This document shows positions 17,169-59,025 of a stretch of DNA of 64,000 bases, piece by piece. The notes beneath the pieces were generated by a model that had not been told where the DNA came from, did not search any database, and saw nothing but the letters and a program-made list of their open reading frames with translations. The translations under genes and the position numbers were made by a program. Positions within the stretch are counted from its first letter, which is position 1. Each line of letters begins with the position of its first letter. This DNA comes from Pristiophorus japonicus (taxonomy: Eukaryota). The stretch spans positions 203,980,001 through 204,044,000 of the forward strand of contig NC_091985.1 in NCBI RefSeq assembly GCF_044704955.1, read 5' to 3'.

Positions 17169-17864
17169 CGACTTTCAACGAATCTTCAATTTCAAAAACC
17201 CCGCCAATTTTTACAATGCGGATTATGTTAATAAATTCACCATTAGCCAAAGATTTCCAAACACTTTTTATTTCCTTTTGCCGTATTCCATATTACCTTC
17301 CAAATTCCAGGATGTTACAATCAGGTTTAAATTCGGGTTCAGTTTCAAACGTTCTGTAACGGGACATATTCCAGCTCAATCTTTGTACAATTTGGGAATC
17401 ACAGACCATGGATCGATCCTCCGCACAGGCGGGAGTGAGACCAGAACTGGGAGTTCTTCTGTGAAAAGAGAAGAGGGACACAGGGTTCAAACTCCCTGTT
17501 CTGGTCTCTGTAAGAACTCCCAGTCTGGGCCGTTGCATTCGGAATCTCGGATTAATAAGCGGGTTGACCCGAACTAGAATTTTTTTTATATTGTAAAGGG
17601 CTTGAGAGAGAATGAGGTGACTAAAGTCTGAGTTTCACCTCCTAAAACAAGATCATAATTCATTGGCAGGTGGCCAGGGACAGTGTGTGCAGTTTACTGG
17701 GAGGGAAATTCATCAGAGAAGCTAAGGTTGAACCGGACAGTAAAACCGCTTGTCTGAGAATTCAAATCTAAATCTACAGCTGGAACTTTAAATGTTGTCA
17801 AACACTTGCTCAGGAAATAACTACAGTAAATTGAGTTAAAAGGGTGATGTGTTTGTGCAGCTCT

Positions 17865-40292: not shown

Positions 40293-41070
40293 TTACTAGA
40301 ATTCTTTGAGGATATAACGAGCATGGTGGATAGAGGTGTACCAATAGATGTGGTGTATTTAGATTTCCAAAAGGCATTCGATTAGGTGCCACACAAAAGG
40401 TTACTGCAGAAGATAGAGGTACGCGGAGTCAGAGGAAATGTATTAGCTTGGATAGAGAATTGGCTGGCGAACAGAAAGCAGAGAGTCGGGATAAATGGGT
40501 CCTTTTCGGGTTGGAAATCGGTGGTTAGTGGTGTGCCACAGGGATCGGTGCTGGAACCACAACTGTTTACAATATACATAGATGACCTGGAAGAGGGGAC
40601 AGAGTGTAGAGTAACAAAATTTGCAGATGACACTAAGATTAGTGGGAAAGCGGGTTGTGTAGAGGACACAGAGAGGCTGCAAAGAGATTTGGATAGGTTA
40701 AGCGAATGGGCGAAGGTTTGGCAGATGGAATACAATGTCAGAAAGTGTGAGGTTATCCACCTTGGGAAAAAAACAGTAAAAGGGAATATTATTTGAATGG
40801 GGAGAAATTACAAAATTACAACATGCTGTGGTGCAGAGGGACATGGGGGTCCTTGTGCATGAATCCCAAAAAGTTAGTTTGCAGGCGCAGCAGGTAATCA
40901 GGAAGGCGAATGGAATGTTGGCCTTCATTGCGAGAGGGATGGAGTACAAAAGCAGGGAGGTCCTGCTGCAACTGTATAGGGTATTGGTGAGGCCGCACCT
41001 GGAGTACTGCGTGCAGTTTTGGTCACCTTACTTAAGGAAGGATATACTGGCTTTGGAGGGGGTACAGAGA
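40293..41070 (+). mobile_element. CR1 RT fragment (family B), near-identical to 44066-44629
   Basis: [10 protein letters not shown] and FADD motifs; spans the un-inserted version of the Tx1 target (GTCCTTGTGCATGAA|TCCC at ~40849-40867). Confidence 0.9.
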
Positions 41071-44000
41071 TAAAAAGAGTACAAAAGGCCCAACGCGGCG
41101 GCAGTCGGGAGCAGCGTGTGGAGGTGCGTAGAGGCGCGTGAGTTCCGGGGTTGGCGAGAGGCTTGCAAAAGGCCCAGCCGGTGCAGCTATAGGGAGAAGG
41201 CAAAAAAGAAGTAGAAAGAAACAGAAAGGTGATGTCACAGCCAAGGGGGTAAGTGATTGGCTGGTGATTGGTGAGTAGGTTTTCTTTTTTCTCTTCTATA
41301 ACAGTAAGTAAACTTTAGCATTGTTGTTGCCTATCTAAGGGTTAAGTCATGGCAGGAGAGCTCGGTCATGTGTTATGCTCCTCCTGTACCATGTGGGAAC
41401 TCAGGGACGCCTCCAGTGTCCCTGACAACTACGTGTGCGGGAAGTGTATCCGCCTCCAGCTCCTGACAGACCGCATTGCGTAGTTGGAGCTGAGGATGGA
41501 TTCACTCTGGAGCATCCACGATGCTGAGAATGACGTGAATAGCACGTTTAGTGAGTTGGTCATACCGCAGGTGAAGGGACAACAGCCAGCTAGGGAATGG
41601 AAGACCAGCAGGAAGAGCAGTGCAAGGAAGGTAGTGCAAGGGTCCCCTGTGGTCATGCCTCTGCAAAACAGATACACCGTTTTGAGTACTGTTTAGGGGG
41701 ATGACTCATCAGGGGAGGGCAGCAGCAGCCAAGTTCATGGCACCATGGCTACCTCTGTTGCACAGGAGGGCAGGAAAAAGAGTGGGAGAGCGATAGTGAT
41801 AGGGGATTCGATAGTAAGTGGAATAGATAGGCGTTTCTGCGGTCGCAACTGAGACTCCAGGATGGTATGTTGCCTCCCTGGTGCAAGGGTTAAGGATGTC
41901 TCGGAGCGGGTGCAGGACATTCTGAAAAGGGAGGGTGAACAGCCAGTTGTCGTGGTGCACATTGGTACCAACGATATAGGTAAAAAAAGGGATGAGGTCC
42001 TACGACATGAATTTAAGGAGCTAGGAGCTAAATTAAAACATAGGACCTCAAAAGTAGTAATCTCGGGATTGCTACCAGTGCCACGTGCGAGTCAGAGTAG
42101 GAATCGCAGGATAGCTCAGATGAATACGTGGCTTGAGCAGTGGTGCAGCAGGGAGGGATTCAAATTCCTGGGGCATTGGAACCGGTTCTGGGGGAGGTGG
42201 GACCAGTACAAACCGGACGGTCTGCACCGAGGCAGGACCGGAACCAATGTCCGAGGGGGAGTGTTTGCTAGTGCTGTTGGGGAGGAGTTAAACTAATGTG
42301 GCAGGGGGATGGGAACCAATGCAAGGAGACAGAGGGAAACAAAAAGGAGACAAAAGCAAAAGACAGAAAGGAGATGAGTAAAAGTGGAGGACAGAGAAAC
42401 CCAAAGCAAAAAACAAAAAGGGCCACTGAATGTAAAGGGGCTGCAGGAGGGGTCAAAACTAAAAATCATGGATTAAAAACTAGTATTAAAACATCGAAAT
42501 AAAGTAAATGAGTTGACGGCACAAATCATTACAAATGGGTATGATTTGGTGGCCATTACAGAAACGTGGTTGCAGGGTGGCCAAGACTGGGAATTAAACA
42601 TACAGGGGTATCTGACGATTCGGAAAGATAGACAAGAAGGTGGGGTAGCTCTGTTAATAAAGGATGATATCAGGGCAGTTGTGAGAGACGATATTGGCTC
42701 TAATGAACAAAATGTTGAATCGTTGTGGGTGGAGATTAGAGATAGTAAGGGGAAAAAGTCACTGGTGGGCGTAGTTTATGGGCCCCCAAATAATAACTTC
42801 ATGGTGGGGCGGGCAATAATCAAGGAAATAATGGAGGCATGTGAAAAAGGAACGGCAGTAATCATGGGGGATTTTAACCTACATATCGATTGGTCTGATC
42901 AAATCGCACGGGGTAGCCTGGAGGAGGAATTCATAGAATGCATACGGGATTGTTTCTTAGAACCAGTATGTTACAGAACACTATCTTAGATCTGGTCCTC
43001 TGTAATGAGACAGGAATAATAAACGATCTCCTAGTAAAAGATCCTCTCGGAATGAGTGATCACAGTATGGTTGAATTTGTAATACAGATTAAGGGTGAGG
43101 AAGTAGTGTCTCAAACGAGCATACTATGCTTAAACAAAGGGGACTACAGTGGGATGAGGGCAGAGTTGGCTAAAGTAGACTGGAAACACAGACTAAACGG
43201 TGGCACAATTGAGGAACAGTGGAGGACTTTTAAGGAGCTCTTTCATAGTGCTCAACAAAAATATATTCCAATGAAAAAGAATGGCGGTAAGAGAAGGGAT
43301 AACCAGCCGTGGATAACCAGGGAAATTAAGGAGAGTATCAAATTAAAAACCAATGCGAATAAGGTGCCAAGGTTAGTGGGAAAATAGAAGATTGGGAAAA
43401 TTTTAAACGACAGCAAAGAATGACTAAAAGAGCAATAAAGGGATAGATTACGAAGGTAAACTTGCGCAAAACATAAAAACGGATAGTAAAAGCTTTTACA
43501 GATATATAAAACGGAAAAGAGTGACTAAAGTAAATGTTTGTCCCTTAGAAGATGAGAAGGGGGATTTAATAATGGCAAATGTGGAAATGGCTGAGACCTT
43601 AAACATTATTTTGCTTCGGTCTTCACAGTGGAAGACACAGAAACCATGCCAGAAATTGCTGGTCACAGGAATGTGGGAAGGGAGGACCTGGAGACAATCA
43701 CTATCACTAGGGGGGTAGTGCTGGACAGGCTAATGGGACTCAAGGTAGACAAGTCCCCTGGTTCTGATGAAATACATCCCAGGGTATTAAAAGAGATGGC
43801 GGAAGTTATAGCAGATGGATTCTACCAAAATTCTCTGGACTCTGGGGAGGTACCAGCGGATTGGAAAGCAGCTAATGTAATGCCTCTGTTTAAAAAAAGT
43901 GGGCACACAAAAGGCAGGTAACTATAGGCCGGTTAGTTTAACATCTGTAGTGGGGAAAATGCTTGAAACTACACTAAGGAAGAAATAGCGGGACATCTAG

Positions 44001-44629
44001 ATCGGAATAGTGCAATCAAGCAGACGCAGCATGGATTAATGAAGGGGAAATCATGTTTAACTAATTTACTGGAATTCTTTGAGGATATAACGAGCATGGT
44101 GGATAGAGGTGTACCGATGGATGTGGTGTATTTAGATTTCCAAAAGGCATTCGATAAGGTGCCACACAAAAGGTTACTGCAGAAGATAAAGGTATGCGGG
44201 GTCAGTGGAAATGTATTAGCATGGATAGAGAATTGGCTGGCTAACAGAAAGCAGAGAGTCGGGATAAATGGGTCCTTTTCGGGTTGGAAATCGGTGGTTA
44301 GTGGTGTGCCACAGGGATCGGTGCTGGGACCACAACTGTTTACAATATACATAGATGACCTGGAAGAGGGGACAGAGTGTTGTGTAACAACATTTGCAGA
44401 TGACACAAAGATTAGTGGGAAAGCGGGTTGTGTAGAGGACACAGAGAGGCTGCAAAGAGATTTAGATAGGTTAAGTGAATGGGCTAAGGTTTGGCAGATG
44501 GAATACAATGTCGGAAAGTGTGAGGTCATCCACCTTGGGAAACAAAACAAAAAAAGGGAATACTATTTGAATGGGGAGAAATTACAACATGTTGCGGTGC
44601 AGAGGGAGCTGGGGGTCCTTGTGCATGAA
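41071..44629 (+). mobile_element. CR1 with 5' UTR, ORF1 (zinc finger and esterase) and ORF2, interrupted by the Tx1 array
   Basis: ATG at 41349 gives MAGELGHVLCSSC...CGKC; GDSIV and HIGTND esterase motifs; APE AITETWL; RT FADD; breaks at GVLVHE. Confidence 0.92.
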
Positions 44630-44871
44630 ACTCTTTTGAGTTTACCTGCGAAAACATAAACATTAAAGAGTGCCACCCGACCTGGGTGACACTCCAGACA
44701 TTTACAAGGCCCTTTTTTTCCCCCCCTTTTTTTTGTTTTTTTTTGTGTTTTTCTTTTTTTGGTTTTTTTTTTGGGCACTAAAATCACAATTTTTCCCCAG
44801 TGCCCCCTATAAAAGGGAAGGGGACACTAAAAGCACCGGCAATTAAAACAAATTAACTTTAAAACGTAAAA

Positions 44872-47800
44872 TCAAATTAAAATTTGGTTGCCGGGCGTGA
44901 TGATGCACTCCAGTCCCTCCGGTGCCCACCTCTCGCGGAAGGCCGCGAGCGTACCGGTGGACACCGCGTGCTCCATCTCCAAGGACACCCTGGACTGGAT
45001 GTAAGAGCGGAAGAGAGGCAGGCAGTCAGGTTGAACGACCCCCTCGACCGCCCGCTGCCTGGACCGGCTGATGGCACCCTTGGCCGTGCCCAGGAGCAGT
45101 CCTACGAGGAGGCCTTCGGACCTACCCGCTCCCCTCCGCACAGGGTGCCCAAAGATCAGGAGAGTGGGACTGAAGTGCAGCCAGAATTTCAGGAGCAGCC
45201 CCTTCAAATAATGGAACAGGGGCTGCAACCTTGTGCATTCCATAAAAACATGGAACACGGACTCCTCCAGACCGCAGAAATTGCAGGCGGCCTGGGAGTC
45301 CGTGAACCGGCTTAAAAATTTGTTGCACGGCACTGCTCCGTGCACCACCCTCCAGGCCAAGTCCCCGATGAATAGTGGGAGGACCCCTGCGTAGAGTGCC
45401 CTCCATCGGGGACCCCCGCCTCCTCCGGACGGCAAGATGGTACGCCATGGCGTGTCCGGACGGCCGGCGAGGATGGCAAAGTTGAGGGTGTGCAGGAGCA
45501 GCCCGTACAGGAAACCCCTCCGTGCGGAACTGAAAGGCACGGAGGGGATTTCCCCGAGGCGGCTCAAGTTGTGAGGCGCCGGCCCCCGAGGGAGGTTCCG
45601 GAGTTTGGCGCCGATGAGGAATTCCGTCCGGACGGGGGTCAGTTCGGACGGGATCTCCCCACGTGCTTGAGCCTCCTCGATGCACCTAACGGAGTCAGGG
45701 CCCAGAGCTGTTTTTAGCGACTCGATGGCATCGGCCGCGTGGCGGACGTTGGCAGAGTTTAGGCGCCGCGCCAGCGTGTCTGGCGCCATCCAGCCCGCTC
45801 CTCCGCCATCGAGCAGGTCCCTGACCCTGGTCACCTCACCAGCCACAGCCCTCTCTTCCGACCGCCACATGAAGCCTCGGCCGTGGAGGTACGGATTCCC
45901 GAGCAGCGGCTCCTGCAGGACGGCCGCCACTCCAGCCGGCGGAGAGCTGCGCTTGGTGGAGACTTTGTTCCAGACCCTGATGAGTTCCCTGTAAAAGACA
46001 GGCAGCTCCCGGAGGGCGGTCCTGGCACCCCCCAAGTTCACAAACAGGAGCTGCGTGTCATAATTGAGGTCGAGCTGCTGGCGGAAGAAATACCTCGCCA
46101 GAGCGCACCACCTAGGAGGGGGCTCGACGTAAAGGTATCTCTGCAGGGTCTGAAGACGGAAAGTCGCGAGCTGGGCGCTGACGCACACCAACGACTGACC
46201 GCCCTCCTCAAGCGGGAGACTCAAGACCGCGGCAGAGACCCAGTGCTTCCTGTTGTTCCAGAAGAAGTCCACCAGCTTCTTCTGTATCTTGGCGACAAAC
46301 GCAGGGGGAGGGGTCAAAGTGACCAGCCGGTACCACAGCATTGCGGCCACCAGCTGGTTTATGACTAGCGCTCGACCCCTGTAGGACAGCACTCGGAGCA
46401 GTCCTGTCCAGCGCCCTAGGCGAGCGGCGACCTTGGCCTCCAGCTCCTGCCAGTTCGCCGGCCAGGCTCCCTCGTCGGGGCTAAGGTAGACTCCCAGATA
46501 GAGGAGATGGGTCGTGCTCCAGGCAAAAGGCCTGAGCTCCTCCGGCAGGGAGTCCACCCGCCACTGACCCACCAGGAGTCCGGAACATTTCTCCCAGTTG
46601 ATCCTGGCGGAGGACGCGGCCGAGTAAATCTCCTGGCACTCACGCATCCTCCGCAGGTCAGCGGGATCCTCTATCGCGAGGAGCACGTCATCGGCGTAAG
46701 CCGAGAGGACGACCTCCACGCCCGGCCCTTGCAGAGCCAGTCCCGTCAACCTCGTCCGCAAGAGGCGCAGGAAAGGCTCCACGCAAACGGCGTATAACTG
46801 GCCGGACATGGGGCATCCCTGGCGCACCCCTCTCCTAAAGCGAAGGGGCGCCGTCAAGTACCCGTTAACCTTAATCAGACACTCCGCGGCGGCGTACAAA
46901 AGTCGGATCCGGGCGACGAAATGCGTCCCGAACCCGAAAGCGCGCAGAGTTCCGAGCAGATAGTCGTGATCCACCCTGTCGAACGCCTTCTCTTGGTCGA
47001 GGGATAGGAAGGCGACCGACAGACCAGCCTCCTGGGAACAATGGATGAGGTCCCGGACCAGATGGATGTTATCGTGGATTGTCCGGCCCGGGACCGTGTA
47101 GGACTGGTCGGGGTGGATCATGTGGTCCAGCACGGCACCAAGGCGAGCAGACATCGCCCTGGCGAAGATTTTGTAGTCCGTGCTGAGGAGGGAGACCGGG
47201 CGCCAGTTCTTAAGGAGGCGGAGATCGCCCTTCTTAGGCAGCAGGACGATGACTGCCCTGCGCCAAGAGAGGGGCATCTCCCCGGTCGCCAGACTTTCCC
47301 CCAGGACCCGCGCGTAGTCGCCCCCCAGGACGTCCCAGAACGCCCTGTGGAACTCCACGGTCAGCCCGTCCAGCCCCGGGGATTTTCCCCTCGAGAGCCG
47401 GGCGAGGGCACCGGTCAGCTCCGCCAGGCTTAGCGGAGCTTCCAGATTTTCGGCGCCCTCCGGGCCGACCTTCGGCAGGTCCTCCCACAAAACTCTACGC
47501 GCTTCCTCGCTGGACGGATCCGGAGAGAACAGAGCCCCGTAATATTCACGGACCCTGTTGTTGACGCCCTCCGGATCCGAGACGAGAGAGCCGTCGTCGG
47601 CCAGCAGCGTCAAGAGCTGCTTACGGACACTCTGCCTTTTTTCCAGCGAGTAGAAGAAGGGGGAGCCGCGGTCCAGATCCCGCAGGAACCGGATCCGCGA
47701 CCTCACGAACGCGCCTCGGGACCCGACGAGCTGCAGGTCCTTCAGCGCGGCCTTCTTCGCTTCGTACACCGTCCGCAGGGCCGGGTCCTGGACGACTTGA

Positions 47801-48771
47801 CCGAGACGGCCTTCCAGGTCGAGCACCTCTTTTTCTAGGCGCCCGACTCTGGCCGCCCGCCTCTTGGTCGACCCCCTCGCGTACTCTTGACAGAAGACGC
47901 GGACGTGAGCCTTGCCCACGTCCCACCATAGCCTCAAGGAGGGGAAGCCCCCCTGCTTCCTTCTCCAGTCGGACCAGAATCGACGGAACGAGTCCTGGAA
48001 CCGCACGTCCTCCAGCAGCCGGTTGTTAAAGTGCCAGTACGCGGACCCCGTCCTCGCGCGGAGCGAAGCGAGCTCCGCCCACACCAGGTGGTGGTCCGAA
48101 CACGGCACCGGCCGCATGGAGGCCGCCGGGACGCAGGAAACGTACGCCCGAGACACGTAAAGGCGGTCGACTCTAGACCATCCAACTCCAGGCCTCACCC
48201 AAGTAAAGGCGCTGGAGTCGGGGTGGAGATTTCGCCAGACGTCCACCAAGTCGAAGGACCCGACCAGGTCCCTCAACTTCTCCATCGCCGTCATGCACTG
48301 CGGGGCACCGGAGCGGTCCCTCGCCTCGAGGGTGCAGTTAAAATCCCCCCCGAGGACAATGCAGTCGCCGACGTCGACGGAGCCAAGAAGAGCGGACACC
48401 TCTTCAAAGAAGCGCGTTTGCTGCGGGCCGGGATGAGGGGCGTACACGTTCACGAGATGGAGCGGCACGTCCCCCAGGCGAACCGTTACGTGCAGCAAGC
48501 GGCCTGGCACGGGCTCCTCGACCCCCAAGATCTCCGGCTGAAAATGCGGGCCCAGCAAGATGGCCACCCCACTAGAAATGGCGGTGAGGTGGCTCATGCG
48601 GACCTCTCCTTGCCATTCCAGGAGCCACGTGGCTTCGTCTCCCGGAACGGTGTGGGTTTCTTGCAGGAAGCACACCGCATATTTCCCCTCCCGCAGGAGC
48701 GAAAAATTGTCAAATCTACGGCGTGCCCCTCTGCCGCCGTTGATGTTGAGGCTGGCTATGGTTATCTTCAT
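44872..48771 (-). CDS. Tx1 ORF2p, unit 1 (intact, 1299 aa from the ATG)
   Basis: APE SLNING / LQETH / GDFN / SDH; RT KSPGLDG / QGCPMS / YADD; C-terminal CNFC...H...C. Confidence 0.95.
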   Translation of the reverse strand: MKITIASLNINGGRGARRRFDNFSLLREGKYAVCFLQETHTVPGDEATWLLEWQGEVRMSHLTAISSGVAILLGPHFQPEILGVEEPVPGRLLHVTVRLGDVPLHLVNVYAPHPGPQQTRFFEEVSALLGSVDVGDCIVLGGDFNCTLEARDRSGAPQCMTAMEKLRDLVGSFDLVDVWRNLHPDSSAFTWVRPGVGWSRVDRLYVSRAYVSCVPAASMRPVPCSDHHLVWAELASLRARTGSAYWHFNNRLLEDVRFQDSFRRFWSDWRRKQGGFPSLRLWWDVGKAHVRVFCQEYARGSTKRRAARVGRLEKEVLDLEGRLGQVVQDPALRTVYEAKKAALKDLQLVGSRGAFVRSRIRFLRDLDRGSPFFYSLEKRQSVRKQLLTLLADDGSLVSDPEGVNNRVREYYGALFSPDPSSEEARRVLWEDLPKVGPEGAENLEAPLSLAELTGALARLSRGKSPGLDGLTVEFHRAFWDVLGGDYARVLGESLATGEMPLSWRRAVIVLLPKKGDLRLLKNWRPVSLLSTDYKIFARAMSARLGAVLDHMIHPDQSYTVPGRTIHDNIHLVRDLIHCSQEAGLSVAFLSLDQEKAFDRVDHDYLLGTLRAFGFGTHFVARIRLLYAAAECLIKVNGYLTAPLRFRRGVRQGCPMSGQLYAVCVEPFLRLLRTRLTGLALQGPGVEVVLSAYADDVLLAIEDPADLRRMRECQEIYSAASSARINWEKCSGLLVGQWRVDSLPEELRPFAWSTTHLLYLGVYLSPDEGAWPANWQELEAKVAARLGRWTGLLRVLSYRGRALVINQLVAAMLWYRLVTLTPPPAFVAKIQKKLVDFFWNNRKHWVSAAVLSLPLEEGGQSLVCVSAQLATFRLQTLQRYLYVEPPPRWCALARYFFRQQLDLNYDTQLLFVNLGGARTALRELPVFYRELIRVWNKVSTKRSSPPAGVAAVLQEPLLGNPYLHGRGFMWRSEERAVAGEVTRVRDLLDGGGAGWMAPDTLARRLNSANVRHAADAIESLKTALGPDSVRCIEEAQARGEIPSELTPVRTEFLIGAKLRNLPRGPAPHNLSRLGEIPSVPFSSARRGFLYGLLLHTLNFAILAGRPDTPWRTILPSGGGGGPRWRALYAGVLPLFIGDLAWRVVHGAVPCNKFLSRFTDSQAACNFCGLEESVFHVFMECTRLQPLFHYLKGLLLKFWLHFSPTLLIFGHPVRRGAGRSEGLLVGLLLGTAKGAISRSRQRAVEGVVQPDCLPLFRSYIQSRVSLEMEHAVSTGTLAAFRERWAPEGLECIITPGNQILI

Positions 48772-48797
48772 GGCAAAAGCATAGTGCAACCTCTACC

Positions 48798-50897
48798 TTA
48801 ACCTATTGTGGGGGAGGGAGCGGAGTCTTTTGTTGAACTCCGCTCCCTCCGCAGCCCAGCGAGGAGTCCCTCGAGCTCGCGCAGCTCAAGGTGCTGCTCC
48901 TTTGTCAAGGGCCCGCCCGCGGCCAAGGTTTTAACGGCGGCGCGGACGGACCCCTTGATCAGCTCCGGCTCGGACCATTTATCCAGGGCCAGTCGGGCTT
49001 GGTCGCGGCGACCCCGGCTCTGGGCCAAAAAGTCCCGGAGTTCCTTTGCAGGAACGAGGAGGGCCTCAGCGGCGGCCGCGAGCAGATCCACCGCCTCGCT
49101 GGCGGTGGTCTCTAGGTCTTCACCCGCGTCCCCCACCGAGTCCCTGTCCTCCTCCGGGAGGTGGCCGCCAGCAGCCGGCCCATCGACCGCACAAGGTACG
49201 GCAAATGAACCGGCCGCTCCAACCGGCCCTGGCACTGCCCCGATCCCACCCCCAGGATCGTCGGCAGAGGAGTCCCCACTGGGCTCTTTTAAAAATGGTG
49301 CTGGGTCGGGAAATGACAGCGGAAGGGGTTCCCCCTCCGCCCCAGGAACCGGAGAACAAGGAGAGACCCGGCCATAGGAAATCCCCAGGCCCTCCAAGTG
49401 CTCCAGCTCCAAAGTAAGGGGCGAGGGTGGGTGTTCCTCCCCCTCCCCGCTGCCACCCCCCGGCCCAGCGTCTACAGTTTCATTAAAATCAATATATTTT
49501 GTTTCTGCCGGGTCGAGCAACTCCCGGGGGAAGTTGGGTAATAGCTGGGCGGGCTCAGGTTCGGCCTTTTCGGCCTCGCCCGCCTCAGTCCCCCGGACGC
49601 CCGGCCCGGCGGCTACGCATTCCTCCGCGGTCCCCACGCCCCCCACGACAGGCAGATCTTCCACTCCATCCCCGGGAGGCAGAGGCTGGGCAGCCTCAAC
49701 TGTCTCACCCTCCCCGGGGAAAGACTCCTCGCGCCTGCAGCGCAATTTGGGGGCGCTGGTGGGGGACGCGGGACACGCGGCGGGCACCGCCTCCTCCGCG
49801 GAGGGATGTTGTTCCCCCTCCGCCTCATTGGGGCGGTGCCTCTTTTTGTTCCTGGGGGCGCGCGGAGTCAGGGAGACCTCCATGTCTGCCGAGGCCTCCC
49901 GCTCCGCCCCCCCCTTTTCCTTTTCTTGCCCGCGCCTGGGCCCCTCTGTGGTGGTATTCAAGGGCCCGGGCACGGGCTCGGGGCACCCCGCGCTCGCCGG
50001 TGACTGGGTTGGGCTGAGCGCGGTGGTCAGACTTTCCGGCGCACCGAGGGGACCCGCCTCTAGATGTTTCTCCTTCTTCCGCGCCTTCTTTCCGCTCGGA
50101 CGCTCTCCCTCCCCCCCGCCGGAGGCCCTGAAAACAAAGGCCTCCGACGATGCCCGCGCACCCATGGCTCCCGGCACGCGGACGCAACTAGGGGGAGGGG
50201 TGGCGGCAGCGCCAGCCTTGGCCGCCTTCGGTGGTTTGGCGGCCTTGGAGGCGGGGCAGTTCTTACGAACATGCCCCACCTCCCTGCAGGCATGGCACCG
50301 CACGCCGTCCGACGTCCAGAAGACGCGGTAGGCAGTCCCCTCGTGCACCACATTAAAGTGCCCTTCTGTCACGTCCTCCCGCGCCAGCCGGACAAAGAGC
50401 TGGCGGCGGAAGGAGAACACGTGGCGCAGGCTGTTCTCCCTGAGGCCGAGCGGTATGGGGTTGATCCCTGACCTTACCTCCCCCAGTTGTTGTAGGTGAG
50501 GGAGGAGGAGCTCAGCGGGAACAAAGGGCGGGACGTTCGACACGATGACCCTCTGCGTGGTGGCCTCGAGAGGATCCACCGGCAGGAACGTCCCGCCCAC
50601 CGTGAGCCCCTTTTCGAGGGCCAGGGACACCGCCCGCTCCGACCCCAGGAAGAAAACAGCCTTCCCAGACATCTTGGAGGCTGCGACAATGGCCTAGGGG
50701 CCGACTACCCCAGCCATCGCCCGCACGCACTCCTCGATGCTCATTGTGGGGTGAGTGTAGCTCTTGACCCCGTGTTTTTTTGTTATAAGTGTAAATGGTG
50801 GCAGGGCAGCGGGTGGCGCAGGAGGTGCTGTGGAAGCGGTTGCCACCTGCGCATACGTCCTTGCTGGCCCTGCCACCGGCGTGGATGGGGTCGCCAT
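48798..50897 (-). pseudogene. Tx1 ORF1, unit 1, with a nonsense codon
   Basis: TCG>TAG at 50694-50696 relative to unit 2; CHACREVGHVRKNC knuckle retained; a downstream ATG at 50672 could give a 624-aa product. Confidence 0.88.
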
Positions 50898-52074
50898 CAC
50901 GGGGTCCCTTTAAGGGCTACACCCACCCCAAAGTCACAGGCCTTAATGGTCTTTAATGGCCTCGTGTATTTAACTGAGCAGAGGAGCCCTTAACGAGGCA
51001 CCTCTCCCCTCGTTGACAATTGGGGAGAGGCCTTGCTCCCTCTGCTCAGTTGTCTTAATTGTTTTTTTTTAAATTTGGAAGGAAAGGGTTCTCAGAGAGA
51101 GAGGGGAGAAACAGAGTAGCAGAGAAAGAGAGAGGGGGGTGGGAAGAGGGGGGGGCTGCGAGGGCAGGTCTCCCCTCGCAGCTGTGGGTGGGTGCACTCC
51201 CCAGATGGCAAAACACAAAAGTCTTTGGGGTGGTCTTCAGGTGGGGGGAGAAGATGTCTTCACCTGGGGTAGCTGGAGCCACCAGGCACTCCTAACGATC
51301 CCTAATTGGGTGATTAATGAAAATCTTCAGCCTGGTAGCTCCAGCTATCCCAGGCTAGGCAAATGTGGGGGGGGGTGGGGGGGGTTCCAATTGTGGGGGG
51401 GGGCCTAGTTGTAAGCACGGCCCCCACGCACACTACCACACACACACACACCCCCCGCGATGTTCCGGCCCTCAGTGGTCTTCTTTCCTCCCCCCACCGA
51501 TACAACAAAGTCTTTTGGGAAATGCACCCACACCCACCTGTAGAGTAGTTGAGTCTCCCTCCTTCCACACTGGATGGTTGTTGTGGTTTTTCCCCCTCTC
51601 TCCAACTCCTTGCAGAATGGTAAAGTTGTTTAAAAGTTTTCTTTTCTCCTCCTCTCCCTCTGGATAAAAGTTGGGATGAAGCCCCTTCCTTCCTTCTCTT
51701 CCTGGGCTGGTCTCAGGGCTCTCCAGGCAGGAGCTCAAGTTGCTAGCTGCTCTCCTCACTGCTCACAGCTCCAACTGAGCAGGACACGCCTCCACAGCTC
51801 CACGATTGGTCCTTGTTCCTGAAACTCTTTTGAGTTTATCTGTGAAAACATAAAACATTAAACGGTGCCACCCGACCTGGGTGACACTCCAGACATTTAC
51901 AAGGCCCTTTTTTTCCCCCCTTTTTTTTTTGTGTTTTTTTTTTGTGTTTTTCTTTTTCTTTTTTTGTTTTTTTTTGGGCACTAAAATCACAATTTTTCCC
52001 CAGTGCCCCCTATAAAAGGGAAGGGGACACTAAAAGCACCGGCAATTAAAACAAATTAACTTTAAAACGTAAAA

Positions 52075-55000
52075 TCAAATTAAAATTTGGTTGCCGGGCG
52101 TGATGATGCACTCCAGTCCCTCCGGTGCCCACCTCTCGCGGAAGGCCGCGAGCGTACCGGTGGACACCGCGTGCTCCATCTCCAAGGACACCCTGGACCG
52201 GATGTAAGAGCGGAAGAGAGGCAGGCAGTCAGGTTGAACGACCCCCTCGACCGCCCGCTGCCTGGACCGGCTGATGGCACCCTTGGCCGTGCCCAGGAGC
52301 AGTCCTACGAGGAGGCCTTCGGACCTACCCGCTCCCCTCCGCACAGGGTGCCCAAAGATCAGGAGAGTGGGACTGAAGTGCAGCCAGAATTTCAGGAGCA
52401 GCCCCTTCAAATAATGGAACAGGGGCTGCAACCTTGTGCACTCAATAAAAACATGGAACACGGACTCCTCCAGACCGCAGAAATTGCAGGCGGCCTGGGA
52501 GTCCATGAACCGGCTTAAAAATTTGTTGCACGGCACTGCTCCGTGCACCACCCTCCAGGCCAAGTCCCCGATGAATAATGGGAGGACCCCTGCGTAGAGT
52601 GCCCTCCATCGGGGACCCCCGCCTCCTCCGGACGGCAAGATGGTGCGCCATGGCGTGTCCGGACGGCCGGCGAGGATGGCAAAGTTGAGGGTGTGCAGGA
52701 GCAGCCCGTACAGGAAACCCCTCCGCGCGGAACTGAAAGGCACGGAGGGGATTTCCCCGAGGCGGCTCAAGTTGTGAGGCGCCGGCCCCCGAGGGAGGTT
52801 CCGGGGTTTGGCGCCGATGAGGAATTCCGTCCGGACGGGGGTCAGTTCGGACGGTATCTCCCCACGTGCTTGAGCCTCCTCGATACACCTAACGGAGTCA
52901 GGGCCCAGAGCTGTTTTTAGCGACTCGATGGCATCGGCCGCGCGGCGGACGTTGGCAGAATTTAGGCGCCGCGCCAGCGTGACTGGCGCCATCCAGCCCG
53001 CTCCTCCGCCATCGAGCAGGTCCCTGACCCTGGTCACCTCACCAGCCACAGCCCTCTCTTCCGACCGCCACATGAAGCCTCGGCCGTGGAGGTACGGATT
53101 CCCGAGCAGCGGCTCCTGCAGGACGGCCGCCACTCCAGCCGGCGGAGAGCTGCGCTTGGTGGAGACTTTGTTCCAGACCCTGATGAGTTCCCTGTAAAAG
53201 ACAGGCAGCTCCCGGAGGGCGGTCCTGGCACCCCCCAAGTTCACAAACAGGAGCTGCGTGTCATAATTGAGGTCGAGCTGCTGGCGGAAGAAATACCTCG
53301 CCAGAGCACACCACCTAGGAGGGGGCTCGACGTAAAGGTATCTCTGCAGGGTCTGAAGACGGAAAGTCGCGAGCTGGGCGCTGACGCACACCAACGACTG
53401 ACCGCCCTCCTCAAGCGGGAGACTCAAGACCGCGACAGAGACCCAGTGCTTCCTGTTGTTCCAGAAGAAGTCCACCAGCTTCTTCTGTATCTTGGCGACA
53501 AACGCAGGGGGAGGGGTCAAAGTGACCAGCCGGTACCACAGCATTGCGGCCACCAGCTGGTTTATGACTAGCGCTCGACCCCTGTAGGACAGCACTCGGA
53601 GCAGTCCTGTCCAGCGCCCTAGGCGAGCGGCGACCTTGGCCTCCAGCTCCTGCCAGTTCGCCGGCCAGGCTTCCTCGTCGGGGCTAAGGTAGACTCCCAG
53701 ATAGAGGAGATGGGTCGTGCTCCAGGCAAAAGGCCTGAGCTCCTCCGGCAGGGAGTCCACCCGCCACTGACCCACCAGGAGTCCGGAACATTTCTCCCAG
53801 TTGATCCTGGCGGAGGACGCGGCCGAGTAAATCTCCTGGCACTCACGCATCCTCCGCAGGTCAGCGGGATCCTCTACCGCGAGGAGCACGTCATCGGCGT
53901 AAGCCGAGAGGACGACCTCCACGCCCGGCCCTTGCAGAGCCAGTCCCGTCAACCTCGTCCGCAAGAGGCGCAGGAAAGGCTCCACGCAAACGGCGTATAA
54001 CTGGCCGGACATGGGGCATCCCTGGCGCACCCCTCTCCTAAAGCGAAGGGGCGCCGTCAAGGACCCGTTAACCTTAATCAGACACTCCGCGGCGGCGTAC
54101 AAAAGTCGGATCCGGGCGACGAAATGCGTCCCGAACCCGAAAGCGCGCAGAGTTCCGAGCAGATAGTCGTGATCCACCCTGTCGAACGCCTTCTCTTGGT
54201 CGAGGGATAGGAAGGCGACCGACAGACCAGCCTCCTGGGAACAATGGATGAGGTCCCGGACCAGATGGATGTTGTCGTGGATCGTCCGGCCCGGGACCGT
54301 GTATGACTGGTCGGGGTGGATCATGTGGTCCAGCACGGCACCAAGGCGAGCAGACATCGCCCTGGCGAAGATTTTGTAGTCCGTGCTGAGGAGGGAGACC
54401 GGGCGCCAGTTCTTAAGGAGGCGGAGATCGCCCTTCTTAGGCAGCAGGACGATGACTGCCCTGCGCCAAGAGAGGGGCATCTCCCCGGTCGCCAGACTTT
54501 CCCCCAGGACCCGCGCGTAGTCGCTCCCCAGGACGTCCCAGAACGCCCTGTGGAACTCCACGGTCAGCCCGTCCAGCCCCGGGGATTTTCCCCTCGAGAG
54601 CCGGGCGAGGGCACCGGTCAGCTCCGCCAGGCTTAGCGAAGCTTCCAGATTTTCGGCGCCCTCCGGGCTGACCTTCGGCAGGTCCTCCCACAAAACTCTA
54701 CGCGCTTCCTCGCTGGACGGATCCGGAGAGAACAGAGCCCCGTAATATTCACGGACCCTGTTGTTGACGCCCTCCGGATCCGAGACGAGAGAGCCGTTGT
54801 CGGCCAGCAGCGTCAAGAGCTGCTTACGGACACTCTGCCTTTTTTCCAGCGAGTAGAAGAAGGGGGAGCCGCGGTCCAGATCCCGCAGGAACCGGATCCG
54901 CGACCTCACGAACGCGCCTCGGGACCCGACGAGCTGCAGATCCTTCAGCGCGGCCTTCTTCGCTTCGTACACCGTCCGCAGGGCCGGGTCCTGGACGACT

Positions 55001-55974
55001 TGACCGAGACGGGCTTCCAGGTCGAGCACCTCTTTTTCTAGGCGCCCGACTCTGGCCGCCCGCCTCTTGGTCGACCCCCTCGCGTACTCTTGACAGAAGA
55101 CGCGGACGTGAGCCTTGCCCACGTCCCACCATAGCCTCAAGGAGGGGAAGCCCCCCTGCTTCCTTCTCCAGTCGGACCAGAATCGACGGAACGAGTCCTG
55201 GAACCGCACGTCCTCCAGCAGCCGGTTGTTAAAGTGCCAGTACGCGGACCCCGTCCTCGCGCGGAGCGAAGCGAGCTCCGCCCACACCAGGTGGTGGTCC
55301 GAACACGGCACCGGCCGCATGGAGGCCGCCGGGACGCAGGAAACGTACGCCCGAGACACGTAAAGGCGGTCGACTCTAGACCATCCAACTCCAGGCCTCA
55401 CCCAAGTAAAGGCGCTGGAGTCGGGGTGGAGATTTCGCCAGACGTCCACCAAGTCGAAGGACCCGACCAGGTCCCTCAACTTCTCCATCGCCGTCATGCA
55501 CTGCGGGGCACCGGAGCGGTCCCTCGCCTCGAGGGTGCAGTTAAAATCCCCCCCGAGGACAATGCAGTCGCCGACGTCGACGGAGCCAAGAAGAGCGGAC
55601 ACCTCTTCAAAGAAGCGCGTTTGCTGCGGGCCGGGATGAGGGGCGTACACGTTCACGAGATGGAGCGGCACGTCCCCCAGGCGAACCGTTACGTGCAGCA
55701 AGCGGCCTGGCACGGGCTCCTCGACCCCCAAGATCTCCGGCTGAAAATGCGGGCCCAGCAAGATGGCCACCCCACTAGAAATGGCGGTGAGGTGGCTCAT
55801 GCGGACCTCTCCTTGCCATTCCAGGAGCCACGTGGCTTCGTCTCCCGGAACGGTGTGGGTTTCTTGCAGGAAGCACACCGCATATTTCCCCTCCCGCAGG
55901 AGCGAAAAATTGTCAAATCTACGGCGTGCCCCTCTGCCGCCGTTGATGTTGAGGCTGGCTATGGTTATCTTCAT
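52075..55974 (-). CDS. Tx1 ORF2p, unit 2 (intact)
   Basis: Same APE-RT-zinc motifs as unit 1, with a few amino-acid differences. Confidence 0.95.
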   Translation of the reverse strand: MKITIASLNINGGRGARRRFDNFSLLREGKYAVCFLQETHTVPGDEATWLLEWQGEVRMSHLTAISSGVAILLGPHFQPEILGVEEPVPGRLLHVTVRLGDVPLHLVNVYAPHPGPQQTRFFEEVSALLGSVDVGDCIVLGGDFNCTLEARDRSGAPQCMTAMEKLRDLVGSFDLVDVWRNLHPDSSAFTWVRPGVGWSRVDRLYVSRAYVSCVPAASMRPVPCSDHHLVWAELASLRARTGSAYWHFNNRLLEDVRFQDSFRRFWSDWRRKQGGFPSLRLWWDVGKAHVRVFCQEYARGSTKRRAARVGRLEKEVLDLEARLGQVVQDPALRTVYEAKKAALKDLQLVGSRGAFVRSRIRFLRDLDRGSPFFYSLEKRQSVRKQLLTLLADNGSLVSDPEGVNNRVREYYGALFSPDPSSEEARRVLWEDLPKVSPEGAENLEASLSLAELTGALARLSRGKSPGLDGLTVEFHRAFWDVLGSDYARVLGESLATGEMPLSWRRAVIVLLPKKGDLRLLKNWRPVSLLSTDYKIFARAMSARLGAVLDHMIHPDQSYTVPGRTIHDNIHLVRDLIHCSQEAGLSVAFLSLDQEKAFDRVDHDYLLGTLRAFGFGTHFVARIRLLYAAAECLIKVNGSLTAPLRFRRGVRQGCPMSGQLYAVCVEPFLRLLRTRLTGLALQGPGVEVVLSAYADDVLLAVEDPADLRRMRECQEIYSAASSARINWEKCSGLLVGQWRVDSLPEELRPFAWSTTHLLYLGVYLSPDEEAWPANWQELEAKVAARLGRWTGLLRVLSYRGRALVINQLVAAMLWYRLVTLTPPPAFVAKIQKKLVDFFWNNRKHWVSVAVLSLPLEEGGQSLVCVSAQLATFRLQTLQRYLYVEPPPRWCALARYFFRQQLDLNYDTQLLFVNLGGARTALRELPVFYRELIRVWNKVSTKRSSPPAGVAAVLQEPLLGNPYLHGRGFMWRSEERAVAGEVTRVRDLLDGGGAGWMAPVTLARRLNSANVRRAADAIESLKTALGPDSVRCIEEAQARGEIPSELTPVRTEFLIGAKPRNLPRGPAPHNLSRLGEIPSVPFSSARRGFLYGLLLHTLNFAILAGRPDTPWRTILPSGGGGGPRWRALYAGVLPLFIGDLAWRVVHGAVPCNKFLSRFMDSQAACNFCGLEESVFHVFIECTRLQPLFHYLKGLLLKFWLHFSPTLLIFGHPVRRGAGRSEGLLVGLLLGTAKGAISRSRQRAVEGVVQPDCLPLFRSYIRSRVSLEMEHAVSTGTLAAFRERWAPEGLECIITPGNQILI

Positions 55975-56000
55975 GGCAAAAGCATAGTGCAACCTCTACC

Positions 56001-58100
56001 TTAACCTATTGTGGGGGAGGGAGCGGAGTCTTTTGTTGAACTCCGCTCCCTCCGCAGCCCAGCGAGGAGTCCCTCGAGCTCGCGCAGCTCAAGGTGCTGC
56101 TCCTTTGTCAAGGGCCCGCCCGCGGCCAAGGTTTTAACGGCGGCGCGGACGGACCCCTTGATCAGCTCCGGCTCGGACCATTTTTCCAGGGCCAGTCGGG
56201 CTTGGTCGCGGCGACCCCGGCTCTGGGCCAAAAAGTCCCGGAGTTCCTTTGCAGGAACGAGGAGGGCCTCAGCGGCGGCCGCGAGCAGATCCACCGCCTC
56301 ACTGGCGGTGGTCTCTAGGTCTTCACCCGCGTCCCCCACCGAGTCCCCGTCCTCCTCCGGGAGGTGGCCGCCAGCAGCCGGCCCATCGACCGCACAAGGT
56401 ACGGCAAATGAACCGGCCGCTCCAACCGGCCCTGGAACTGCCCCGATCCCACCCCCAGGATCGTCGGCAGAGGAGTCCCCACTGGGCTCTTTTAAAAATG
56501 GTGCCGGGTCGGGAAATGACAGCGGAAGGGGTTCCCCCTCCGCCCCAGGAACCGGAGAACAAGGAGAGACCCGGCCATAGGAAATCCCCAGGCCCTCCAA
56601 GTGCTCCAGCTCCAAAGTAAGGGGCGAGGGTGGGTGTTCCTCCCCCTCCCCGCTGCCACCCCCCGGCCCAGCATCTACAGTTTCATTAAAATCAATATAT
56701 TTTGTTTCTGCCGGGTCGAGCAACTCCCGGGGGAAGTTGGGTAATAGCTGGGCGGGCTCAGGTTCGGCCTTTTCGGCCTCGCCCGCCTCAGTCCCCGGGA
56801 CGCCCGGCCCGGCGGCTACGCATTCCTCCGCGGTCCCCACGCCCCCCACGACAGGCAGATCTTCCACTCCATCCCCGGGAGGCAGAGGCTGGGCAGCCTC
56901 AACTGTCTCACCCTCCCCGGGGAAAGACTCCTCGCGCCTGCAGCGCAATTTGGGGGCGCTGGTGGGGGACGCGGGACACGCGGCGGGCACCGACTCCTCC
57001 GCGGAGGGATATTGTTCCCCCTCCGCCTCATTGGGGCGGTGCCTCTTTTTGTTCCTGGGGGCGCGCGGAGTCAGGGAGACCTCCATGTCTGCCGAGGCCT
57101 CCCGCTCCGCCCCCCCCTTTTCCTTTTCTTGCCCGCGCCTGGGCCCCTCTGTGGTGGTATTCAAGGGCCCGGGCACGGGCTCGGGGCACCCCGCGCTCGC
57201 CGGTGACTGGGTTGGGCTGAGCGCGGTGGTCAGACTTTCCGGCGCACCGAGGGGACCCGCCTCTAGATGTTTCTCCTTCTTCCGCGCCTTCTTTCCGCTC
57301 GGACGCTCTCCCTCCCCCCCGCCGGAGGCCCTGAAAACAAAGGCCTCCGACGATGCCCGCGCACCCATGGCTCCCGGCACGCAGACGCAACTAGGGGGAG
57401 GGGTGGCGGCAGCGCCAGCCTTGGCCGCCTTCGGTGGTTTGGCGGCCTTGGAGGCGGGGCAGTTCTTACGAACATGCCCCACCTCCCTGCAGGCATGGCA
57501 CCGCACGCCGTCCGACGTCCAGAAGACGCGGTAGGCAGTCCCCTCGTGCACCACATTAAAGTGCCCTTCTGTCACGTCCTCCCGCGCCAGCCGGACAAAG
57601 AGCTGGCGGCGGAAGGAGAACACGTGGCGCAGGCTGTTCTCCCTGAGGCCGAGCGGTATGGGGTTGATCCCTGACCTTACCTCCCCCAGTTGTTGTAGGT
57701 GAGGGAGGAGGAGCCCAGCGGGAACAAAGGGCGGGACGTTCGACACGATGACCCTCTGCGCGGTGGCCTCGAGAGGATCCACCGGCAGGAACGTCCCGCC
57801 CACCGTGAGCCCCTTTTCGAGGGCCAGGGACACCGCCCGCTCCGACCCCAGGAAGAAAACAGCCTTCCCAGACATCTTGGAGGCTGCGACAATGGCCGAG
57901 GGGCCGACTACCCCAGCCATCGCCCGCACGCACTCCTCGATGCTCATTGTGGGGTGAGTGTAGCTCTTGACCCCGTGTTTTTTTGTTATAAGTGTAAATG
58001 GTGGCAGGGCAGCGGGTGGCGCAGGAGGTGCTGTGGAAGTGGTTGCCACCTGCGCATACGTCCTTGCTGGCCCTGCCACCGGCGTGGATGGGGTCGCCAT
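56001..58100 (-). CDS. Tx1 ORF1p, unit 2 (699 aa, gag-like)
   Basis: N-terminal RRM-like region (VIVSNVPPF), CCHC knuckle, and a long acidic/Pro-rich tail. Confidence 0.93.
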   Translation of the reverse strand: MATPSTPVAGPARTYAQVATTSTAPPAPPAALPPFTLITKKHGVKSYTHPTMSIEECVRAMAGVVGPSAIVAASKMSGKAVFFLGSERAVSLALEKGLTVGGTFLPVDPLEATAQRVIVSNVPPFVPAGLLLPHLQQLGEVRSGINPIPLGLRENSLRHVFSFRRQLFVRLAREDVTEGHFNVVHEGTAYRVFWTSDGVRCHACREVGHVRKNCPASKAAKPPKAAKAGAAATPPPSCVCVPGAMGARASSEAFVFRASGGGEGERPSGKKARKKEKHLEAGPLGAPESLTTALSPTQSPASAGCPEPVPGPLNTTTEGPRRGQEKEKGGAEREASADMEVSLTPRAPRNKKRHRPNEAEGEQYPSAEESVPAACPASPTSAPKLRCRREESFPGEGETVEAAQPLPPGDGVEDLPVVGGVGTAEECVAAGPGVPGTEAGEAEKAEPEPAQLLPNFPRELLDPAETKYIDFNETVDAGPGGGSGEGEEHPPSPLTLELEHLEGLGISYGRVSPCSPVPGAEGEPLPLSFPDPAPFLKEPSGDSSADDPGGGIGAVPGPVGAAGSFAVPCAVDGPAAGGHLPEEDGDSVGDAGEDLETTASEAVDLLAAAAEALLVPAKELRDFLAQSRGRRDQARLALEKWSEPELIKGSVRAAVKTLAAGGPLTKEQHLELRELEGLLAGLRRERSSTKDSAPSPTIG

Positions 58101-59025
58101 CACGGGGTCCCTTTAAGGGCTACACCCACCCCAAAGTCACAGGCCTTAATGGTCTTTAATGGCCTCGTGTATTTAACTGAGCAGAGGAGCCCTTAACGAA
58201 GCACCTCTCCCCTCGTTGACAATTGGGGAGAGGCCTTGCTCCCTCTGCTCAGTTGTCTTAATTGTTTTTTTTTAAATTTGGAAGGAAAGGGTTCTCAGAG
58301 AGAGAGGGGAGAAACAGAGTAGCAGAGGAAGAGAGAGGGGGGTGGGAAGGGGGGGGGCGCTGCGAGGGCAGGTCTCTCCTCGCAGCTGTGGGTGGGTGCA
58401 CTCCCCAGATGGCAAAACACAAAAGTCTTTGAGGTGGTCTTCAGGTGGGGGGAGAAGATGTCTTCACCTGGGGTAGCTGGAGCCACCAGGCACTCCCAAC
58501 GATCTTTAATTGGGTGATTAATAACAATCTTCAGCCTGGTAGCTCCAGCTATCCCAGGCTAGGCAAATGTGGGGGGTGGGGGGGGTTCCAATTGTGGGGG
58601 GGGGCCTAGTTGTAAGCACGGCCCCCACACACACTACCACACACTCACACACCCCCCGCGATGTTCCGGCCCTCAGTGGTCTTCTTTCCTCCCCCCACTG
58701 ATACAACAAAGTCTGTTTGGGGAAATGCACCCACACCCACCTGTAGAATGTTGGGTCTCCCTCCTTCCACACTGGTTTGTTGTTGGTCTTTTCCCCCTCT
58801 CTCCAACTCCTTGCAGAAATGATAAAGTTGTTCAAAGTTTTCTTTTCTCCTCCTCTCCCTCTGGATAACAGTTGAAGGTGAAACCCCTTCCTTCCTTCTA
58901 TTCCTGGGCTGGTCTCAGGGCTCCCCAGGCAGGAGCTCAAGTTGATAGCTGCTCTCAGCACTGCTCACAGCTCCAACTGTGCAGGACACGCCTCCACTGC
59001 TCCACAATTGGTCCTTGTTCCTGAA

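Follow-up and report, generated by a model that had tools for sequence, protein, structure and literature searches.

A Tx1-clade LINE inserted in CR1 of Pristiophorus japonicus, with arrays that may grow by target-primed insertion and homology-completed 5' junctions

Our analysis of a 64,000-nt stretch of the Pristiophorus japonicus genome (the window) points to an antisense Tx1 LINE whose arrays probably grew by repeated target-primed insertion, with the 5' junction completed by homology. Judging from sequence comparison, we place the probability of this reading at roughly 0.68. Up to 42 head-to-tail copies (275 kb) likely result from this kind of finishing, which would use either the neighbour's end or an RNA-carried piece of the target.

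The array and its element

The relevant features of the window are the following.

16828..17182, minus strand: solo 5'-truncated Tx1 copy, off-target, serving as internal control (copy body 16842-17168)
40293..41070, plus strand: un-inserted CR1 paralog, empty site at 40848-40867
41497..44629, plus strand: 5' part of the host CR1 LINE, RT gene interrupted at the GVLVHE codons (RVT_1 at 43967-44656)
44614..44629, plus strand: target 16-mer, host allele GGTCCTTGTGCATGAA; first-strand nick presumably after 44629
44630..51807, minus strand: Tx1 unit 1 (founder), ORF2 at 44872-48792 open for 1306 aa
44630..44641, minus strand: 3' end of unit 1, precise and without a poly(A) tail
51808..51823, plus strand: junction 1, GGTCCTTGTTCCTGAA, an allele foreign to the host site
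51824..59009, minus strand: Tx1 unit 2, ORF1 at 56001-58112 (703 aa), ORF2 at 52075-55995 (APE, RT, weak zf-RVT)
59010..59025, plus strand: junction 2, allele GGTCCTTGTTCCTGAA as at junction 1
59026..64000, minus strand: Tx1 unit 3, ORF2 open for 1232 aa

The original prediction described three Tx1 units within a CR1 RT gene. The location inside CR1 was borne out, but the array comprises 42 units (38 full-length and 4 truncated) over 275 kb, running another 255 kb beyond the window and terminating in the 3' part of a CR1. The Tx1 units are 98.6-99.4% alike, and the 1306-aa ORF2 is open in 32 of the 38 full-length ones; the open stretch of ORF1 in the founder is only 631 aa. The CR1 site and both internal junctions share the GAA|ACTCTTT register (44627, 51821 and 59023), as had been noted, and this motif is also found at 16839 in the solo copy, which has a plain 14-bp TSD (16828-16841 and 17169-17182) without the 16-mer. 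GGTCCTTGT starts at 40848, 44614, 51808 and 59010, and the un-inserted paralog does read ...GTGCATGAA|TCCC. At the far end of the array, where TCCCAAAAAG had been expected, TCCTTGTGCTTGAA|TGACAGAAGG was found instead.

ORF2 carries PF03372 (APE) at residues 13-234 and PF00078 (RT) at 519-768. Its closest named relative over the full length is ORF2 of Xenopus laevis Tx1 (Tx1L), with 49% identity across 1297 aligned residues and 99% coverage, and pairwise similarity thus places the element as a Tx1-clade LINE. The motifs ETH, GDFN, SDH and YADD are visible in the alignment with Tx1L. In the 703-aa ORF1 a CCHC knuckle (C-x2-C-x4-H-x4-C) was recognized by eye, and a Pfam search of ORF1 gave no match. 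A terminal ACTC-loop-GAGT inverted repeat was present at the 3' end in 22/22 of the commonest 3' variants. A splice-acceptor-like YAG lies 17 nt before the 3' end. Regarding a ribozyme for the RNA 5' end, an Rfam search returned sub-threshold matches only, while our own descriptor of HDV-like ribozymes, which has no positive control, gave 0 hits in 4 contexts.

Shared 5' ends and array growth

Similarity between neighbouring units is strongly polar in the window's array (C9). Across 38 units, the ratio of adjacent to mean divergence was 1.00 for the 3' 100 nt (p=0.48), 0.64 for positions 6000-7000, 0.37 for the last 187 nt (p<0.0005) and 0.08 at the junction. Only the 5' tip is shared (median run 194 nt), and the bulk of each body hence came from outside; block 1 bodies diverge by 0.62% from their block-mates and by 0.61% from 51 units elsewhere. 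Units are therefore composed of 3' bodies from a genome-wide pool and 5' ends common with the neighbour. The junctions follow the same pattern. The GTTCCTGAA allele is block-specific, occupying 22 consecutive junctions. In 5.9 Gb there are 38 occurrences of the junction 16-mer (22 in the window's array and 9 in one C5 array) compared with one of a reversed control, a recurrence that is not due to chance. The junction identity pointed out earlier was confirmed, but within arrays it stems mainly from copying of the resident neighbour, and GTTCCTGAA is both rare and local; elsewhere the plain CR1 allele is found at most junctions.

Truncated units behave similarly, since neighbours share one breakpoint at 9 of the 11 informative loci (18 sampled). 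Six same-breakpoint pairs have 5-23 differences in the 3' 60 nt against 0-1 in the last 40 nt; further truncation points are shared at 453 (four times), 2363 (five times) and 960 (six times). At a zinc-finger-gene site on C23, a new unit shows 88 differences from its left neighbour and is then identical for ~750 nt, the identity continuing across the junction and along 2,630 bp of flank as far as the nick; this 2.6 kb flank was duplicated with zero substitutions. The C23 unit had been considered as proof of RNA carriage and was set aside, being copied from the neighbouring array. Locus L145 was likewise dropped as an off-target founder after CR1 with a short insert was found on its left. Unit age showed no significant trend with position in the array (Spearman -0.23, p=0.16), which leaves growth at the far end unsupported.

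It could be argued that unequal exchange expanded the arrays and that target-primed gene conversion later swapped 3' parts without net gain, an explanation that we regard as unlikely. Unequal exchange is known for R1 arrays, according to the available part of one account (10.1101/158386), and the C5 array, which is weakly polar (0.74 at the 3' and 0.77 at the 5' end), contains whole-unit and 4-unit duplications, among them a block of four units that is repeated and three units that are nearly identical. Pairs of a full-length and a short unit are also repeated at L180, L187, L188 and L189, and the chimera head matches a resident unit at L179 and L183. However, neighbours sharing both unit ends, as unequal exchange alone would leave them, were absent from C9 and seen in part in C5. 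C9 bodies are mostly of outside origin with sharing at the 5' tip only, the C23 case combines net gain, a new body and a duplicated flank stopping at the nick, and the foreign founder alleles and the +32 tract described below are left unexplained. In our preferred reading, unequal exchange would add whole-unit duplications to arrays grown by insertion.

Target preference and carried CR1 sequence

The insertion site is TCCTTGTGCATGAA^TCC in the CR1 RT gene, with the element antisense. Genome-wide, 15,987 3' ends adjoin the target site, and 6,844 of these junctions are CR1-first. By eye, the target 14-mer with at most 2 mismatches precedes 79 of the 100 3' ends listed, and 21/100 are off-target, a share obtained with a search pattern that left out canonical CR1 founders. 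Tx1 families are considered target-specific when more than 20% of flanks are one sequence (available part of PMC4494074), a proportion exceeded here. In 18 junction rows with at least 4 mismatches (16 true off-target sites and 2 junction variants), the last four positions of the 14-mer match in 11, 16, 16 and 18 of 18, and the other positions in 1-7 of 18. Off-target sites thus agree with the target at the last 3-4 nt only.

These data bear on the proposal, made in the original prediction, that 3' read-through RNA pairs over up to 16 nt with the nicked strand like a primer-binding site and thereby chooses the target. The 3' junctions are precise and tail-less, the 16-mer stands directly behind the 3' end in most donors, pairing has been proposed for R1 (PMC2718515) and 3' target pairing raises the efficiency of R2Ol (PMC6530143), as far as the available parts of these reports go. 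Nevertheless, we consider guidance of this kind quite improbable. About a fifth of the listed 3' ends are off-target, at sites sharing just those 3-4 nt, the 16-mer was copied onto unique DNA in 0/18 sampled junctions, and the Tx1L endonuclease alone is site-specific according to the accessible text of PMC1950540. Pairing as a requirement thus found no support. The donor pool is also independent of the junction allele, and donors from the genome-wide pool entered one site ~20 times despite its mismatches at -5 and -7. RNA pairing over 3-4 nt, or pairing that merely boosts efficiency, may still take place.

Self-insertion with a carried target, on the other hand, held up. The family re-enters the CR1 site, and 98 of the first 100 full-length ends listed are followed by the 16-mer (by eye). 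That the junction 16-mer is not a plain TSD of the host proved true for full-length founders, with an allele differing internally from the host left site in 3/3 clear cases, but in truncated founders the local site is simply duplicated as a TSD of 11-15 bp. The allele at junction 1 was likely brought in by unit 1.

A CR1 stop-codon variant (TGACAG tract) directly after GAA was found at 351 loci, and Tx1 adjoins 19 of the 20 fetched. Linked CR1 markers are present in 18/23 at +25 and 8/23 at +32 and then fall to background, compared with 0/13 in controls; automatic empty/occupied labels were unreliable in this comparison and hence not relied on. Two observations run counter to this pattern. A marker at +186 is enriched in the TGACAG class (19/23 vs 4/13), and the tract follows truncated units at four loci without a full-length unit (L174, L175, L191 and L218), which requires array collapse or another route; the rule that a full-length unit must accompany TGACAG does not hold there. 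An active CR1 subfamily was rejected as the source, given the stop codon in the RT frame, the clustering of markers at the nick and the lack of a clade beyond +40. In a target-deleting Tx1 class with 272 matches, 95 of the first 100 uniformly lack the 16-mer and 18 nt more; copies are solitary in 18/20, and a +31 marker occurs in 9/20. Because this subfamily is older (~92% identity), the effects of age and target loss cannot be told apart. The carried CR1 piece reaches ~32 nt further into CR1, and its likely job is therefore 5' joining. From the carried alleles we infer that the template RNA would include upstream target sequence.

Plain R1-type re-insertion into the TSD, with odd alleles as TSD point mutations copied onward and TGACAG as a favoured CR1 subfamily, seems very improbable to us. 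It fits a minority of stacks, such as L140 and L141 with their independent breakpoints, and the truncated founders at L216, L219, L229, L232 and L233 that copied the host allele. Most stacks contradict it, since it cannot yield shared truncation points or 5' ends shared over 0.1-2 kb, and neither one rare allele on two chromosomes nor the stop-codon variant with markers up to 32 nt from the nick is accounted for. A collapsed or duplicated repeat in this single assembly, conceivable for the near-identical C5 units, is scarcely credible as a general explanation, considering that C9 units are ordered mosaics 1-4% apart and that many loci, spread over several contigs, repeat the same patterns.

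Proposed mechanism and related systems

In the mechanism that we favour, the APE domain would nick after GAA, the observed site, and reverse transcription would start at the exact 3' end. Microhomology joining could then produce the truncated copies with 11-15 bp TSDs that are seen. Alternatively, with an RNA that likely starts ~33 nt past the nick in the CR1 flank, the cDNA end would anneal to the far half of the target, importing the 16-mer allele of the donor and replacing host CR1 over as much as ~32 nt; the carried markers are observed, the leader RNA is putative. Where a resident copy adjoins the nick, a switch of synthesis between this resident and the new cDNA is likely, which would give the observed mosaic of a new 3' body with the neighbour's 5' end and junction. 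Since a target is present at the far end whichever way the insertion was completed, the cycle could repeat.

The closest parallel is Drosophila R1 in 28S rDNA. In the available part of its description (PMC2718515), R1 is an APE LINE with a 14-bp TSD, tandems arise by insertion into the TSD at the resident's 5' end, truncated copies have TSDs, and a lineage with upstream target on its RNA deletes the target uniformly and forms tandems rarely or not at all. Likewise, a TSD-sized target copy separates our units, and the class without the TSD is without arrays. R1, however, belongs to the R1 clade, targets rDNA and reaches 2-3 copies per unit, and copying of a neighbour's breakpoint or flank is not described in that part (PMC2718515), whereas the present Tx1-clade element has a dispersed LINE target of ~30,000 sites and up to 42 units. 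The element works like R1 but is not R1, with a CR1 RT gene as host and a Tx1-like protein.

R2 possesses a restriction-like endonuclease. In the accessible text of PMC3774820, annealing of 9-36 nt of upstream 28S target gives R2 uniform 5' junctions, and junction variants and deletions are propagated, as may be the case here; R2 has an HDV-like ribozyme, of which neither Rfam nor our unvalidated descriptor found an example in the Tx1 element. In contrast to R2, a dispersed, polymorphic target exposes the overwritten tract. Within the Tx1 clade, Tx1L, Keno, Kibi, Koshi and Tx1-Mar likewise have a target preference, including for other transposons, and tandem SINEU-3 copies sandwich a TSD via sequential insertion (PMC4494074). 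The targets listed in the available part of that survey are piggyBac, Mariner, Harbinger and LTR elements, snRNA genes and microsatellites; neither CR1 nor another LINE is among them, and long arrays built from intact elements are not described there (PMC4494074). TE-derived satellites similarly begin as TSD-separated dimers and later expand into higher-order repeats, but there the dimers differ in truncation, and exchange accounts for the expansion (available part of 10.1101/158386). Here, most growth adds new bodies and keeps the neighbour's end. Chimeric L1 insertions, in which L1 cDNA recombined with an endogenous L1, are reported to be rare events of cultured cells; they too join cDNA to a resident copy by homology, here the common outcome of re-insertion. 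Neither a CR1-targeting Tx1 nor neighbour-templated completion was found in the literature covered, which was mostly open-access and without Repbase.

Overall, we lean towards a picture of a LINE homing into a LINE, in which a CR1 5' leader of ~50 nt would have rewritten hundreds of host sites, re-inserted copies would normally be completed on the neighbour, and retrotransposition, not unequal crossover, would build satellite-sized arrays of intact elements and kilobase flank duplications. The joining of the 5' end is the least understood step of non-LTR retrotransposition, and homogenisation of rDNA erases its traces. With a dispersed, polymorphic target and ~16,000 junctions, the donor or host origin of each base becomes readable, and the subfamily without the target provides a natural control. 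The array (275 kb) would also illustrate how a LINE can turn directly into a satellite, and how local duplications can arise. Finally, a vertebrate APE LINE with a site preference, whose full-length insertion appears to be directed by homology, is of interest for gene-insertion tools.

The element, its CR1 target and its arrays

The Tx1 element lies on the minus strand and encodes an ORF1 of 703 aa and an APE-RT ORF2 of 1306 aa, the latter sharing 49% identity along its whole length with ORF2 of Xenopus Tx1L; partial matches of 68-70% identity were obtained in ray and shark. The array host appears to be the plus-strand RT gene of a CR1-type LINE, a label taken from sequence without a named match. 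The 16-mers at 44614-44629, 51808-51823 and 59010-59025 and the empty CR1 paralog at about 40848-40867 lie where the original prediction placed them. The head-to-tail arrangement inside CR1 also held, but not the count of three units: a contig walk gave 42 units over 275 kb, 38 of them full-length and 4 truncated, and the array's far end lies in the 3' part of a CR1. The open 1306-aa ORF2 is retained in 32 of the 38 full-length units, and no age gradient was found along the array. Junction alleles are grouped in blocks, namely GGTCCTTGTTCCTGAA (22 copies), GGTTCCTTGTGCATGAA (14), the CR1 allele (1) and GTGCTTGAA (5, far end included). The window's junction allele occurs 38 times genome-wide: 22 in this array, 9 in the C5 array, 1 at a further junction on C5 and 6 where no element lies close by.

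C5 array: 19 units, 9 copies of the window's junction allele
Window 5800-8400, 24993-26650, 27016-28110, 31939-33190: degenerate tandem repeats and several more CR1 copies

One tandem-repeat set has an 84-bp period and a 424-aa, zinc-finger-like open frame. The 3' 100 nt of the units are their most variable stretch (about 10% between units), yet a pyrimidine run, a CAG some 17-20 nt from the end and a terminal ACTC/GAGT hairpin persist in it (window 59026-59075, minus strand, all units). In arrays the next unit follows shortly downstream of this stretch, which resembles a splice acceptor.

Genome-wide, 15,987 3' ends are preceded by CTTGTGCATGAA and 6,844 by the canonical CR1 left side, so that up to 9,143 are tandem or have a variant left side. 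Canonical CR1 right halves number 29,798, about 86 of 100 among the matches listed being empty CR1 (by eye). By a rough estimate, with about a quarter of sites occupied, independent site use would yield 1,000-2,000 tandem junctions and no array as long as 42 units. For one 3' variant (3,480 matches), 79 of 100 among the matches listed stand behind the 14-mer with no more than two mismatches, 46 of them after a full-length 5' end; the remaining 21 are off target, a share that is overstated because the search pattern left out canonical CR1 founders (all by eye).

Probable copying of the 5' end from neighbours

Similarity within the main array is polar, and its units form haplotype blocks. Across the 38 units, adjacent 3' ends are no closer than average (ratio 1.00, p=0.48, 2,000 permutations), while 5' ends are much closer (0.64 at 6000-7000 and 0.37 in the last 187 nt, p<0.0005). 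In the ORF2 region, block 1 diverges by 0.61% from 51 units of other loci vs 0.62% between non-adjacent block-mates. Unequal crossover predicts that neighbours have both unit ends in common, and cannot import new bodies. It does act too: the C5 array repeats a 4-unit block and has weak polarity, and repeated groups occur at L179, L180, L183 and L187-L189. Beyond the window, three adjacent units of the main array on C9 (12-14) have in common an ORF2 disruption with an open stretch of 1035 aa, a dead mutation that reached neighbouring units.

Among 18 loci drawn from matches to one 3' variant, 11 hold two or more truncated units, and the breakpoint is repeated at 9 of these; six such pairs differ at 5-23 positions in the first 60 nt vs 0-1 in the last 40. 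Breakpoint 453 occurs four times at the main array's far end, with differences ceasing by column 221 of 476. Further series are 960 (six copies) and 2363 (five), the latter fetched owing to its repeated appearance. On C23, a zinc-finger-gene site 2.6 kb past an array holds an insertion with 88 differences from the array's last unit, followed by an exact match over about 750 nt that continues through the junction and 2,630 bp of flank and stops at the nick. We suggest that APE nicks the target, that a template switch would occur between the new copy and the resident neighbour, and that arrays would grow at the far end.

Duplicated and carried target at the 5' junction

Plain TSDs and carried target both occur. 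Truncated founders duplicate the local site over 11-15 bp, on target and off target alike, and copied unusual host alleles at L216, L219, L229, L232 and L233; the truncated solos L089, L149 and L150 have no duplication within the viewed sequence.

Window 16828-17182: truncated founder with local duplication
L085, L087, L088, L090, L092, L141, L148, L151: truncated founders with 11-15 bp local duplication

The 16-mer stands behind a full-length 5' end in 98 of 100 among the matches listed of 1,736 (by eye). The junction allele is internally unlike the host left site in three clear founder cases (the window, the C13 array and the C1 array at L145), and differs at the edge only, hence ambiguously, for founders on C5 and C8. 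At L143-L144 and L167-L168 units stand behind junctions shortened to GGAA or GAA; thus the full 16-mer is not in every stack junction. Units with about 12-60 nt of 3' end between TSDs, sometimes repeated beside a longer unit (L224, L146, L082), represent insertions that aborted or else 5' tags derived from an upstream neighbour. Five copies of about 270 bp, with one common truncation point and a 4-5 bp target remnant ahead of TCCC, represent either a non-autonomous derivative carrying its own junction or local duplications.

C1: 307759, 896775, 1308324, 1991017, 3179389: the about-270-bp copies
L145:386-926: insert of 541 bp in the CR1 target, flanked by a TSD of its own

The L145 insert starts with 8 nt from the 3' end of Tx1, followed by a pair of SINE-like repeats, and has a tRNA at its own 5' end (852-923, minus strand, Rfam 55.7 bits); it is likely a template-switch retrocopy made by this Tx1 element; a 10-unit array later grew behind it.

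The carried tract reaches into CR1. A GAA|TGACAGAAGGATAG variant, which interrupts the CR1 RT frame with a stop codon, was found at 351 loci, and a Tx1 end adjoins 19 of 20 fetched, one being empty. Markers beyond the positions used for selection accompany it, +25 in 18/23 and +32 in 8/23, each 0/13 in canonical sites. Beyond +40 these loci are as distant from each other as from controls, except at +186 (19/23 vs 4/13). In a deletion class the 5' end joins CR1 +19 directly (95 of 100 among the matches listed of 272), a uniform target loss confounded with age, the class being an older subfamily. It is mostly solitary, with a single unit in CR1 at 18 of 20 fetched loci, and 9 of the 20 have a +31 marker in common. 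Both classes are consistent with an RNA leader that would reach about 33 nt past the nick and anneal to the target's far half, as proposed for melanogaster-type R1 (PMC2718515) and R2 (PMC3774820). At four loci the TGACAG tract lies behind truncated units only, so the leader model needs a later collapse or template jump. Five loci, spread over three contigs, carry one and the same shortened junction (5' tip, GGTTGAA, TGACAG), indicating that the whole junction travelled as a unit.

C1:364421294, 383462107, 424167434; C2:53893429; C3:43957596: shortened-junction loci

No ribozyme was found in element contexts by an Rfam search or by our own HDV descriptor, used without a positive control.

Target selection and precedents

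It had been proposed that 3' read-through RNA selects the site by pairing. In 18 junction rows with four or more 14-mer mismatches (16 truly off target), the last four positions match in 11, 16, 16 and 18 rows, and the other ten in 1-7. The 16-mer on unique DNA, a sign of 3' read-through reported for R1, was present at 0 of 18 sampled junctions, and about 20 insertions from a genome-wide pool entered a site that does not match at -5 and -7. Long pairing is therefore not required. Since the terminal hairpin is extendable by two target bases, a short 3' extension pairing with the target is possible, as for R2Ol (PMC6530143). The Tx1L endonuclease is described as site-specific on its own (PMC1950540).

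Tandems driven by TSDs, upstream target carried along by the element and Tx1 families that target TEs have each been described before (PMC2718515, PMC3774820, PMC4494074, 10.1101/158386). A literature search whose coverage excluded Repbase and most subscription journals returned no CR1-targeting Tx1, no case in which an overwritten tract is visible within a dispersed target, and no neighbour-templated completion as the usual outcome. Such completion has a precedent in chimeras between L1 cDNA and resident copies.
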